Positions 28,000 to 40,623 of a DNA stretch of 64,000 bases are shown in pieces; position 1 is the first letter of the stretch; every line of letters begins with the position of its first letter. Source of the DNA: a virus; IMG/VR virus record IMGVR_UViG_3300021379_000006, positions 32,001 through 96,000 of that record. The stretch is one strand, 5' to 3'. The notes under the pieces were generated by a model. The model saw only the letters and a list, made by a program, of their open reading frames with translations, did not search any database and was not told the origin of the DNA. The position numbers and the translations under genes were made by a program.

Positions 28000-30795
28000 T
28001 TATGAACCCATCTTTCCTGTGTAAAAAGGCACTGCAAACTTCTTAATTTCTTTTCCTTTTTTTCCTTGACCATTTGCTAAACTCATTGTCGCAAGTACTT
28101 CTGGTGTAAGACCATACATTTCTGCATAATTCCCACTAAGCATTGGATTCTCTGCTTGAGTTGTTCCTGAAGTATAGTAATCTATCATAGCTTTGTTGAC
28201 ACCATCTTCACCAAACATGTTATACAAATCTTGTAGATCTTGCATACGTTGTTGTTTAGCAACTCTAGGATCTCCTTGCTTACTTGGAATAGGTCTTCTA
28301 CCATTTACAAAATCAATGGTACCACCTGTTACAGGATTAATATTAAATTGATCATAAAGACTACTTAAATTGTAAGCGCCCACTGCATTTGTAAGAGCAT
28401 CTGCCTGCCAGTTCATGAAATCATTCATGTCAGCATTCTTTTCATTATCATACATTTGCAATGTAGCTTGTGTTGCATCATACAATTGATCAGTTCTTTC
28501 AGCATTTAATCTGTTAACCGCAAAGTCTAATTGAGCCTGACGTGTTAAACCAGAATTAACTGTATTAATATTTCTACCATGAACTCTTGCAAATGCGTTA
28601 GCGGCTTGCGTCATTGCATCACCAGACATTTTACTTAACCTAGCACTTGTGCTTTGAGGACCCGCAAAAGCACCTACTGCCTGCGCAGCTATATTATATT
28701 TCTCATTTACATCTGCAAGCTGTCTTGTAGGTTCTTCTAGTACATAATCTATTCTTGGTCTTTCAATAGGCTGTCTGAACGGCATGTACATATTTCTATC
28801 TCTAAGAGCAATTGCTGCTCCCTTATATAGATCTTGTGTGTAGAAGTCAAGATCAGGATCTCTATATGTTTGTATATCTCCTGGTTCATCACAGCATTCT
28901 AATGAATATGTACCATCGGGACAAAGACATCCTTCTTCTTCTTTTTCTTTTTCTGGTTCTGGCTCTGCTACTTGTAAGAATTGATTCAAAGTATTATTAC
29001 CGTAGAATCCATCTTTCTTAGAAATCTTCTTATTTACAGCCCAGTTAGTATTTTGATTTGGTCCAGTTGCTGTATATGATAAGTATGGCTCAGCATTATC
29101 CTTATCTGCTATAGTAACAGCTTGGAAGAATAATTGATTTAATTGTGTTGTTTTGTCATCAATGTTATAACCACCATAAAGATCTGGATAAAGTTCTGCT
29201 GCTCTATCAAATAAAGCTTGAGTGTTTTTATTTTTTCTATCTCCTCTACCTCTATCTAACTCTTTTGCATATCTCATGTCTTCAGGCATAAGATCTGCAA
29301 TCATATAGTTATTCTTTTGGTAGTCTAGGAATGTTTGAACCATCTCAGCCTTAGATGGGATATCAGATTCAGGAATACCTTGCGCCTTTGCGTTAGCAAC
29401 AAAAGCAACATAAGCTCTATCAATTGTAGTTTCCCACATAGGATCACCAGAAGTAAATAGTCTTTCTAGTTCTTGATATTGTGAATAGTTATCACCTAAC
29501 CCTCTACCACCTTCAATCTCTGAAACATCTAAGGTTGTTCTACCACCTCTTCTTGAAGCAGCAGGTGCCGCAGCAGGTGCCGCAGCAGGAGAAGGTGTAG
29601 GAGAAGGTGGTGCAGAAGCTCCAGCAGCTGAACCAGAAATAGTTGTAGCAGGAATAGTTGTAGCAGGAGGAGTAGGATCAAGAGGACCGGATGCTTTAAC
29701 ATATGCTTGTGCATCACCACTCCAAACCCAGCCTGCATTTTCCATTGTTGTATTATACTGAGTACCAGCATGTGGATTTCCTGTTGGAATAAGACTTCCT
29801 ACAGGATTACCCTCTGTATCTACCGCATGTTTTCCTATTTCTACATACTTGCCGTTTGTAAATTGATATGCTGTACCGTTTGCTGGATTAAAATAATAAA
29901 CACCTTCTTGAGCATCTGCTGTAAATGGTATACCATATCTACCATTAGACATTTTTTGATATTCAATACCATTTTGGGCTCTTGGTAATTCCATACCATA
30001 AGCAGCCATAGGTTGTGACATTTGACCAGCTTGTTCCATTATCTGTCTTAATGCCATTACCTGAGCTTGTTGCTCTGGAGATAATCCTTCAAACATTCTT
30101 TGTGCAGCTTGCTCTCTTGTGATATTCTCTACTTTCTGAGTAAACTCAATAGGATTAATACCTTGAGAAATCAAATAAGGATGAGCAGTTGCTGGAACAC
30201 CATCTGAAAATTGTTTCTTTGCTTCTTGTCCAAATGCTAATTTTGATAAACTCATTTGATTTTTATCTATCATTAATTCAGCACTTTTGGTTGTAATGTT
30301 ATCTGCAAAAGGATCTGCCATTGCTCCTATGTATTCATTGAGCTGGTATTTTTTAGAAACCTTAGCTGGAGTCATTTTCTTTCTTGATTCAATACCAAAC
30401 TCTGCAAGCTCTTGTCTATTAAACTTCATTTTAGCTGTATCAGAAAATACAAATGATTGCTCTGGCAAATACATTGGTACGCCACCACTACTGTGTCTAG
30501 GACCTTTAATGTCATACAAACCAAATCTACCATCATTATTAAGATCTGTCAATACAGTCTCACCACCTTCTGCTTCTATATTAGCAACTTCTCTAGGTAC
30601 GGATGATAAAGAGTATCTAACATCTACGTCATTGGTATTGTTAAATTGGTCATTACCAAAATTATAAGGAGATGTAACAAGACCATAACCAGATTGATCT
30701 CCGGTCATCATACCGCCATGTTTCATCTTTTTTGTAACCTTACCGTTTTTAATTTCAAAACCATCAGGTAATTTTTTTAATCTAATCTTTGCCAT
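28000..30795 (-). CDS. Virion cargo protein
   Basis: 931 aa. N-terminal ANIEAEGGETV..GPRHSSGGV..FVFSD motif typical of crAss-like internal proteins, a Pro/Ala linker and an LPRAQNG linker motif. Confidence 0.65.
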   Translation of the reverse strand: MAKIRLKKLPDGFEIKNGKVTKKMKHGGMMTGDQSGYGLVTSPYNFGNDQFNNTNDVDVRYSLSSVPREVANIEAEGGETVLTDLNNDGRFGLYDIKGPRHSSGGVPMYLPEQSFVFSDTAKMKFNRQELAEFGIESRKKMTPAKVSKKYQLNEYIGAMADPFADNITTKSAELMIDKNQMSLSKLAFGQEAKKQFSDGVPATAHPYLISQGINPIEFTQKVENITREQAAQRMFEGLSPEQQAQVMALRQIMEQAGQMSQPMAAYGMELPRAQNGIEYQKMSNGRYGIPFTADAQEGVYYFNPANGTAYQFTNGKYVEIGKHAVDTEGNPVGSLIPTGNPHAGTQYNTTMENAGWVWSGDAQAYVKASGPLDPTPPATTIPATTISGSAAGASAPPSPTPSPAAAPAAAPAASRRGGRTTLDVSEIEGGRGLGDNYSQYQELERLFTSGDPMWETTIDRAYVAFVANAKAQGIPESDIPSKAEMVQTFLDYQKNNYMIADLMPEDMRYAKELDRGRGDRKNKNTQALFDRAAELYPDLYGGYNIDDKTTQLNQLFFQAVTIADKDNAEPYLSYTATGPNQNTNWAVNKKISKKDGFYGNNTLNQFLQVAEPEPEKEKEEEGCLCPDGTYSLECCDEPGDIQTYRDPDLDFYTQDLYKGAAIALRDRNMYMPFRQPIERPRIDYVLEEPTRQLADVNEKYNIAAQAVGAFAGPQSTSARLSKMSGDAMTQAANAFARVHGRNINTVNSGLTRQAQLDFAVNRLNAERTDQLYDATQATLQMYDNEKNADMNDFMNWQADALTNAVGAYNLSSLYDQFNINPVTGGTIDFVNGRRPIPSKQGDPRVAKQQRMQDLQDLYNMFGEDGVNKAMIDYYTSGTTQAENPMLSGNYAEMYGLTPEVLATMSLANGQGKKGKEIKKFAVPFYTGKMGS
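29558..29668. repeat. Short coding tandem repeats (Pro/Ala/Thr linker)
   Basis: GCAGCAGGTGCC x2+, GGAGAAGGTG x2 and ATAGTTGTAGCAGGA x2 encode PATTIPATTI and PAAAPAAAPAA. Confidence 0.7.
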
Positions 30796-30797
30796 AA

Positions 30798-40400: not shown

Positions 40401-40623
40401 TTGGCACTTCAAATACAGCATTACCTGGGAATACATAATCATAACCCGGCATCATCAATTTGGTGTTGCCTAGGTTATCTGTCCCCATAACAGGAAAGTC
40501 TACGCCCTTCATTGTAATATTACCCGAAGGAATAATATTATATGGGTTGTTTACATCTGGAGAGTTTCTTTTGTAACCCTCTGTAGAAAACTTCTTACCT
40601 GTTTTTGTAATGTTCTTTTTCAT
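34450..40623 (-). CDS. Modular virion cargo protein with peptidoglycan-acting domains (2x LysM, L,D-transpeptidase-like, 2x lysozyme-like, zincin)
   Basis: 2057 aa. Lys[15 protein letters not shown] x2 (about 36090-36415); YkuD-like [18 protein letters not shown] (about 35460-35945); [33 protein letters not shown]. Confidence 0.8.

Follow-up and report, generated by a model that had tools for sequence, protein, structure and literature searches.

This study concerns a short Gly-Gly peptide motif that recurs in three adjacent genes of a viral genome, P0001, P0002 and P0003, and that had been read in the original prediction, made from the letters alone, as a linker dividing three cargo proteins into exchangeable modules. 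The genes lie in a stretch of 64,000 nucleotides (the window; bases 32001-96000 of the 117,829-base viral contig IMGVR_UViG_3300021379_000006, CheckV completeness 100%). The genome holds 94 open reading frames (ORFs) with 36,432 amino acids (aa) in total, and Pfam matches to Crass_capsid (E = 3.3e-32), CrAss_Ring_1, CrAss_Ring_2 and crAss_MUZ identify a Crassvirales virion gene block. The source is a marine crAss-like phage, that is, a crassvirus. On the minus strand the genes run in the order muzzle, P0003, P0002, P0001, a 1035-aa protein, a 4988-aa RNA polymerase (RNAP)-associated giant and an 1887-aa protein. A scan of viral contigs with a P0001 profile returned 77 related loci with this same crassvirus-type order (muzzle, cargo, RNAP-associated giants). 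The 4988-aa protein aligns partly with gp47 and gp50 of the distant gut crassvirus crAss001, and the 1887-aa protein with its gp49. According to the available sections of Bayfield 2023 (PMC10172136), the virion cargo proteins C1 and C2 of crAss001 are products of the genes that follow its muzzle gene. Because of this position, P0001-P0003 were assigned as cargo genes, and judged by gene position they are probably carried in the particle and injected. The block consists of the following genes (window coordinates).

40623..45719, minus strand: muzzle gene, 1698 aa, upstream of the cargo block; Pfam crAss_MUZ E = 9e-28, PHROG virion structural proteins
34450..40623, minus strand: P0003, a 2057-aa modular protein, probable cargo; Pfam LysM 5.4e-34 and YkuD 2.8e-10, HExxH positions, tail kept in relatives
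30798..34412, minus strand: P0002, a 1204-aa modular protein, probable cargo; conserved head (aa 1-230) and conserved tail LEVDNDTLAALIAAGADIEML
28000..30795, minus strand: P0001, 931 aa, probable cargo; N-terminal domain (aa ~60-255) highly conserved, middle variable, C-terminal part helical and conserved

Together the three proteins comprise 4192 aa. P0003 opens with a head module, followed by a hydrophobic G/A-rich stretch near aa 195-225 and an HEFGH sequence at aa 493; its C-terminal side carries a second HExxH sequence (HESWH, aa 1266), two LysM domains (aa 1405-1500), a YkuD domain (aa 1560-1717) and, after a motif copy MEQGGE, the conserved tail. Outside the window, a Cpn10 (GroES) homologue (Pfam 7.2e-14; L007:10354-10635, minus strand) adjoins the terminase and portal genes.

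The motif and its copies

P0001-P0003 contain six long copies of the pattern (Y/K)GG-x-LP(K/R/S)(A/Y)Q-x-G, all of them at the positions given in the original prediction (one in P0001, two in P0002 and three in P0003), and the eight short copies that it had listed are likewise all present. We treated long and short forms as one motif because they substitute for each other at the same place: the site before the LysM domains reads LQDGGE here, YQQGGE in one relative and the long form in another. They appear to be variants of a single peptide, hydrophobic-(K/Q)-x-G-G-(E/D), often extended by LPK(A/Y/F)Q-x-G(E). The copies are as follows.

40387..40401, minus strand: short copy MAQEG, P0003 aa 75-79, end of the head module
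38443..38484, minus strand: long copy, P0003 aa 714-727
37432..37470, minus strand: long copy, P0003 aa 1052-1064; GG kept in 3/3 relatives whose alignment spans the site
37108..37149, minus strand: long copy, P0003 aa 1159-1172, followed by a sub-module common with P0002 aa 485-543
36424..36441, minus strand: short copy LQDGGE, P0003 aa 1395-1400, with the first LysM domain following 5 residues on
34645..34662, minus strand: short copy MEQGGE, P0003 aa 1988-1993, preceding the conserved C-terminal tail
33978..33992, minus strand: short copy MAYGG, P0002 aa 141-145, preceded by a low-complexity stretch rich in Q and M
33096..33137, minus strand: long copy FKYGGSTLPKAQYG, P0002 aa 426-439, bounding the aa 440-709 module on the left
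32235..32297, minus strand: YKGGSFPE plus long copy LKYGSELPKAQFG, P0002 aa 706-726, bounding that module on the right
31674..31691, minus strand: short copy YKKGGE, P0002 aa 908-913, followed by the small PHMMYDP module
31548..31565, minus strand: short copy MQNGGD, P0002 aa 950-955, preceded by the PHMMYDP module
30864..30878, minus strand: short copy EYGGE, P0002 aa 1179-1183, followed by the conserved tail
30712..30726, minus strand: short copy MKHGG, P0001 aa 24-28, at the end of a conserved N-terminal leader for which a beta-hairpin is predicted
29968..30009, minus strand: long copy MAAYGMELPRAQNG, P0001 aa 263-276, where family conservation collapses

A six-frame scan of the window for LP[KRS][AY]Q recovered the six long copies and one match in a stop-ridden frame, and a looser pattern applied to all 94 ORFs of the genome gave eight matches, namely the six long copies and two without glycine context. 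Within this genome the full form of the motif is limited to the three cargo proteins.

Outside the window, a lysine-rich protein of 100 aa (G000:C1 28702-29004, minus strand; L006:10702-11004) carries five motif copies spaced 8-14 residues apart (YMRAGGE, LMKAGGM, KMRYGAE, KMMYGGS and KMKMGGT) and has the C-terminal end KKKKAKKK. Beside its gene lie two very small basic ORFs, of 44 and 68 aa, and a tail-fibre-like gene of 1422 aa; a PHROGs search of these neighbours returned the tail-fibre match only.

Breakpoints between relatives

The families of P0001, P0002 and P0003 are referred to as P1, P2 and P3. Among the 77 loci, P3 proteins range from 539 to 2141 aa and P2 proteins from 416 to 1761 aa, whereas P1 and a neighbouring protein of about 1050 aa vary less. 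To locate module borders, clustered internal ends of BLASTP alignments between family members were taken as breakpoints and called well supported if backed by at least 10 ends of high-scoring segment pairs (HSPs). Those within 8 aa of a motif were counted as near, and the expected number was derived from the fraction of each protein lying within 8 aa of a motif. Well-supported breakpoints were distributed as follows.

P0002 database family: 45 breakpoints, 33 near the motif, 4.7 expected
P3, viral contigs: 173 breakpoints, 98 near the motif, 14.7 expected
P2, viral contigs: 129 breakpoints, 40 near the motif, 14.3 expected
P1, viral contigs: 93 breakpoints, 19 near the motif, 3.4 expected
Control protein of about 1050 aa, viral contigs: 47 breakpoints, 5 near the motif, 2.0 expected

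When all breakpoints of the P0002 family were counted, 81 of 425 lay near the motif versus 44.2 expected; since one ancestral change recurs in many pairs, such counts are not independent and their p-values overstate the case. The proposed location of the motif at domain boundaries was borne out, the borders coinciding with breakpoints in relatives. A comparison of modules between related phages, which had been named beforehand as a check, likewise turned out in its favour: module content differs and breakpoints map to the motif.

Individual modules illustrate the pattern. Residues 440-709 of P0002 lie between two long copies, with 28 HSP ends clustering at aa 440 and 24 at aa 713, and many relatives lack or replace this module; P0127 and P0129 carry about 750 residues in its place. 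The PHMMYDP module is found between YKKGGE and MQNGGD in P0002 and, at a different location, between FANGGE and LPKAMFG in P0132. P0150 combines P0002-type modules with a P0003-type tail, and relative L002 lacks the module of about 225 residues between MQNGGD and EYGGE, its MQKGGE leading directly to the tail. Within the genome, P0002 and P0003 have nothing in common except motif copies and one 60-residue sub-module (P0002 aa 485-543, 32784-32960; P0003 aa 1172-1219, 36967-37110; 42% identity, E = 0.001), which has the pattern ...NW.V.T.DD...AFAAAR.D.G...YGD.RYTT and in P0003 directly follows a long copy. These comparisons support exchangeable modules joined at the motif, which marks sites of module gain, loss or exchange among relatives.

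Pfam domains of 36 P3 relatives comprised SLT (14), LysM (12), PG_binding_1 (7), YkuD (5), ART-PolyVal (3) and Phage_lysozyme (1), with none in 11. The view of these genes as a polymorphic array of enzyme modules held up, since they sit at the crassvirus cargo position and vary in module content among relatives; judged by its domains, a polymorphic, mostly cell-wall-directed effector array is a fair description.

Several observations on single modules were made in passing. The ADP-ribosyltransferase domain ART-PolyVal, present in P3 relatives L020, L024 and L041, ties the cargo proteins to the class of polyvalent proteins. The FEPHMMYDP...GYLH module of P0002 (aa 914-949, 31566-31673) is 41% identical to a hypothetical protein of Methylophilales phage Melnitz (Kyanoviridae), in which it lacks GG flanks; the match suggests that modules move between unrelated marine phage groups. 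In the P3 relative L001:4747-9834, an N-terminal stretch that by eye resembles a SET-domain methyltransferase (…GDELTTNY…) replaces the usual head and is followed by FQYGG. In L062:7214-9998, two ORFs of 443 and 492 aa that overlap by 26 bases make up the P2 gene; the first ends shortly after ...IKKGGKAF and the second starts MQKIFLPTNETGG, which may reflect either a frameshift or a genuine split beside a GG site.

Constraint on the peptide

The copies had also been described as similar in their DNA. This is correct insofar as the 13-base word TGAGCTTTRGGTA occurs four times versus 0.01 expected (100 shuffles); the word is, however, the reverse complement of the (L)PKAQ codons, and DNA similarity is nil beyond those 15 bases. 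Among 54 LPKAQ sites in relatives we found 19 different DNA words, with codon usage at background for Pro (p = 0.49), Ala (p = 0.15) and Gln (p = 0.35) and a leaning to the commonest codon for Leu (p = 0.002) and Lys (p = 0.01), these p-values being uncorrected for relatedness. Because the likeness is confined to 15 coding bases and synonymous sites vary freely, selection acts on the peptide and not on the DNA. The suggestion that the DNA itself acts as a recombination joint was thus not supported, and a DNA-level recombination signal was rejected as the main explanation.

Retention and enrichment in relatives

Retention of GG at the short copies was counted in local BLAST windows, only where the flanking module was present in the relative. 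GG was retained in 63/63 relatives for MKHGG, 34/36 for MEQGGE, 34/40 for EYGGE, 25/27 for YKKGGE, 13/16 for MQNGGD, 7/13 for LQDGGE and 4/6 for MAYGG. MAQEG was the weakest short copy, with GG in 15/47 relatives and mostly MAQxG in the remainder. For P0001, database searches returned 848 relatives at E<=0.001; a conservation profile built on an alignment of 120 sequences (P0001 and 119 of these relatives) gave the motif consensus PMAxYGxELPKAQxG, at which conservation drops from 0.57 to 0.08. In a 52-sequence alignment, G27 and G28 as well as G267 and E269 of P0001 were at least 90% conserved. For P0002, 32 database relatives of 678-1710 aa were found.

Motif frequencies were compared between 188 distinct cargo proteins (184,206 aa) and 174 neighbouring virion sequences (256,969 aa; muzzle, the protein of about 1050 aa and the N-terminal part of the RNAP protein). 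The pattern LPx[AYF]Q occurred 92 times in cargo versus 6 times in neighbours (5.1 +/- 1.8 in composition shuffles of the cargo), [MFYL][KQAE]xGG[EDS] 158 versus 14 times (shuffles 11.0 +/- 3.4) and GGE 327 versus 44 times (shuffles 81.4), the neighbours being at or below their own shuffle expectation. The motif is thus enriched in cargo 15- to 20-fold over neighbouring virion proteins and about 14- to 18-fold over shuffles. In a logo of 97 long sites, in which the L, P and Q positions are fixed by the search pattern itself, G was present at three residues before L in 70%, K in 60%, A in 87% and G at two residues after Q in 68%.

The motif also marks the ends of the proteins. A motif-like peptide closes a short conserved leader in all three families: MAKIKINKLPEGFELKDGKVVKKMQQGG in P1 (28 residues, ending GG), MKANKKSLYQEGGS in relatives of P2, degenerate in P0002 itself, and ...KGLPGGPNE in P3. 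Family-specific conserved C-terminal tails start right after the last GGE.

Structural setting and occurrence in other phages

An AlphaFold2 model of P0001 based on the 52-sequence alignment reached a mean predicted local distance difference test (pLDDT) score of 69.6, and the motif sites fell into segments with pLDDT <50 (aa 23-35 and 255-275) between confident domains. The motif is therefore predicted to lie in disordered linkers.

In crAss001 gp45, the cargo protein C1, A[YF]GG occurs four times versus 0.10 expected from composition, and FAEGG is a fifth copy of the type FA.GG/A[YF]GG; the G positions are 209, 262, 332, 427 and 562. The available sections of PMC10172136 describe gp45 as a virion cargo protein that presumably leaves through the tail in the N-to-C direction, with residues 214-245 resolved in the tail barrel and 425-552 on the portal wing. 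On these published residue ranges, the first resolved segment begins 4 residues after AYGG (aa 207-210), while the second opens exactly at AFGG (aa 425-428) and stops 7 residues before FAYGG. The AFGG copy is therefore ordered and still attached to the portal-bound domain that it opens. The short motif thus appears to frame docking elements in crAss001 too. Homology between P0001 and gp45 was considered as well and went undetected: BLASTP of P0001-P0003 against gp45 gave E>=0.1, a profile search against the PDB for such a relationship gave nothing at E<=1, hhalign of the P0001 family against gp45 gave a probability of 0.2% over 17 columns, and Foldseek of the whole 931-aa P0001 model against the PDB together with a wide fold search returned only generic, uninformative helical matches.

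Beyond this clade, the short form was found in virion proteins gp040 and gp041 of Cellulophaga phage phi4:1, downstream of a muzzle homologue. In Leptolyngbya phage Lbo-JY46, both forms occur in three proteins after the muzzle homologue, and the P1-like protein starts MKIRIIGLPKAQIG. By these matches the motif spans marine crass-like phages, crAss001 and a cyanophage. Its presence in a phage of a cyanobacterium makes it more likely that the reader of the motif is viral than that it is a Bacteroidota-specific host factor.

Candidate proteases

A motif with Gly-Gly at module borders raises the question of cleavage. A six-frame hidden Markov model search of the whole genome with PF02902, PF00770 and PF03412 (Peptidase_C48, C5 and C39) gave no matches at E<=10; a host or novel protease remains conceivable. 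Pfam scans of 89 ORFs detected no prohead protease, the sole peptidase-like match being DUF2201_N in the replication module. The original prediction had considered the motif a capsid-packaging tag and/or a maturation-protease site; a zincin within the cargo as the processing enzyme was not supported as stated. HExxH is present in the cargo trio of 17/54 loci and absent from 37/54, for which reason such a zincin was rejected as the general processing enzyme, and the HEFGH region of P0003 matched no Pfam peptidase model.

A second site of this type lies in the RNAP-associated giant.

18452..18469, minus strand: YHEAFH, candidate zincin-like site, aa 2116-2121 of the 4988-aa RNAP-associated giant (9848-24814); HExxH kept in relatives

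HExxH was retained in 45 of the 54 relatives with at least 2150 aa of sequence, and crAss001 gp47 has it at aa 2157. The AlphaFold2 model of the region had a mean pLDDT of 64.6 and was poor just before HExxH; with this model Foldseek found no match at E<=0.001, and a Pfam search of 28 members at E<=1 yielded no peptidase family with any consistency. Its zincin nature is suggested by the conserved HExxH together with a statement on orthologues in the available part of the Drobysheva preprint, where the phi14:2 gp65 orthologue is given a zincin-like protease domain with no role assigned. The region is a candidate processing protease. The same part of the preprint calls fused RNAP proteins "likely cleaved". 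RLQGGE (aa 2302-2307, window 17894-17911, minus strand) lies at the approximate fusion point of the gp47-like and gp50-like parts of the 4988-aa protein; it was rejected as a polyprotein site, not being kept in two more distant fused relatives.

Discussion

In each cargo protein, enzyme and binding modules are strung in variable order and number between a head and a tail that are both conserved. We tentatively favour, as the leading possibility, that the motif, a short linear peptide placed in the disordered linkers that join the modules, remains uncut, so that these polyvalent-type ejected proteins would carry at each joint a flexible Gly-Gly hinge plus a docking handle; our leaning towards uncut over cut is slight. 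The handle would be recognised by a conserved virion component (portal, tail-barrel rings or muzzle), and hinge and handle together would let modules load and later thread through the tail like beads on a string. Modules would seem to recombine "at" the motif because only recombinants keeping a joint on each side of a module survive. For an uncut peptide speak the bipartite long form with its variable spacing, which is unlike a typical protease site, and the 100-aa basic protein, in which copies stand so close (five of them, 8-14 residues apart) that a polyprotein would make no sense. Counted on the same side were the Pro after GG in P3 leaders, the lack of a recognised protease and the ordered AFGG of crAss001.

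Several points weigh against an uncut hinge and handle. A motif at nearly every joint, near N-termini and before tails also looks like a code for polyprotein cleavage, and a conserved zincin-like site appears to be co-packaged. The docking partner is putative, and the support from gp45 is indirect, coming from published residue ranges of a protein whose homology to P0001 was undetected. Breakpoints away from the motif make up 43% in P3, 69% in P2 and 80% in P1. Finally, GGE occurs 44 times in the neighbouring virion proteins compared with about 77 in shuffles, a possible sign of avoidance, to which we gave little weight because the sequences are related.

The most serious alternative, which we nevertheless consider unlikely, is that the motif is a processing site and the cargo proteins are polyproteins, from which cleavage at Gly-Gly or beside it, in the capsid or after ejection, frees the modules; the protease would be the zincin-like domain of the co-packaged giant or a host enzyme. 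Adenovirus, African swine fever virus (ASFV) and double-glycine leader proteases provide examples of Gly-Gly sites. The way in which the motif punctuates module borders, sits near N-termini and precedes conserved tails would be explained, as would the modest GGE deficit in co-packaged proteins and the persistence of YHEAFH in 45/54 relatives and crAss001 gp47, and in their available sections the Drobysheva preprint and Iyer 2017 (PMC5512222) expect or propose cleavage, the latter proposing zincin processing for polyvalent proteins and citing processed phage P1 DdrB. The same source, however, reports that the N4 virion RNAP, with a zincin-like domain of its own, is packaged unprocessed. Against cleavage stand further the genome scans, which detected neither a C48, C5 or C39 family member nor a prohead protease, the lack of a Pfam or fold match and the poor model for the zincin-like region, and the absence of the variable cargo zincin from 37/54 loci. 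AFGG is attached to an ordered gp45 domain in crAss001, nearly all listed P3 N-termini read GLPGGP, with Pro after GG, and RLQGGE at the fusion point of the 4988-aa protein is not kept in the two more distant fused relatives. An improbable third view holds that the motif is a passive flexible linker whose flanking residues owe their conservation solely to the shared ancestry of the joints. The predicted disorder of the sites and the glycines as the most conserved positions would suit it, but non-glycine positions are kept across otherwise unrelated proteins (A 87%, K 60%, E after GG), copies inside one genome are otherwise unlike, and the motif persists from marine crass-like phages to crAss001 and a cyanophage. 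That the coding DNA serves as a recombination joint, offering microhomology for exchange between phages and paralogous genes, is highly improbable: it would account for the fourfold 13-base word (0.01 expected), the mapping of breakpoints to the motif and the P0150 hybrid, yet identity is limited to 15 coding bases, 54 sites use 19 DNA words with background Pro, Ala and Gln codons, hardly any DNA is fixed in the short GG form, and selection on the protein would place breakpoints at the motif just as well.

A bolder idea, which on present evidence we rather doubt, is that the motif forms a cargo code read by the packaged zincin-like domain of the giant, the polyproteins being cut at their Gly-Gly joints in the capsid or just after ejection. 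If so, a strain-specific cocktail of cell-wall- and host-directed enzymes would be released, a tailed phage would use Gly-Gly maturation much as adenovirus or ASFV do, and any new module with the motif on both sides would be delivered and released. Still bolder is a variant in which the aromatic/Met-Gly-Gly joints and the five-copy basic mini-protein would act as cohesive stickers condensing cargo and DNA in the capsid.

How several megadaltons of protein are loaded and ejected is an open question, as stated in the available sections of Bayfield 2023 (PMC10172136) and of the N4 paper (PMC13434306). Crassviruses are among the most abundant phages of gut and sea, and the motif predicts where to seek cleavage in virion mass-spectrometry data, which peptide to look for in cryo-electron microscopy maps and where to insert foreign modules for delivery. 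Joints marked by the motif would also explain the fast diversification of injected enzyme sets.

Comparison with known systems

Gly-Gly sites serve the adenovirus protease, ASFV pS273R, Ulp-like proteases and double-glycine leader peptidases. As in these systems, the motif has a hydrophobic residue a few positions before GG, many sites per precursor and small basic carriers; unlike in these systems, the genome searches revealed no such protease family, and the hydrophobic residue lies one position further away than in the adenain consensus. In T4, with its capsid targeting sequence, and in the processing of the phiKZ inner body, short peptides direct loading and a prohead protease cuts. The likeness lies in internal or ejected proteins marked by short peptides, whereas here Pfam scans gave no prohead protease and the motif is internal and repeated, not just N-terminal.

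The nearest relation by position is crAss001 C1 (gp45), the gene of which lies directly downstream of the muzzle gene, as do the cargo genes here. Like P0003, gp45 has basic termini and a G/A-rich hydrophobic stretch. It is, however, a single protein of 842 aa, as compared with three proteins of 4192 aa with enzyme modules, lacks the LPKAQ extension and has no significant sequence or profile match to P0001-P0003. The available sections of PMC10172136 treat gp45 as one chain spanning tail and capsid and make no mention of the motif, of protease or of words beginning with cleav- or proteol-. Polyvalent proteins, in the accessible part of PMC5512222, are large, multidomain, mosaic and codelivered with DNA, and bear peptidoglycan-attacking, zincin and effector domains. 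P0003 likewise combines several unrelated domains, with two LysM, a YkuD and two HExxH sites. That part of PMC5512222 contains neither a conserved inter-domain junction peptide or linker nor a mention of crAss, whereas the cargo studied here has a specific motif at its joints as well as fixed heads and tails. Literature searches on LPKAQ, crAss cargo and muzzle proteins, virion proteolysis, zincins and Crassvirales polyproteins yielded no description of the motif. The junction peptide seems to be a previously undescribed feature of a known kind of protein, the crassvirus cargo and phage polyvalent proteins.

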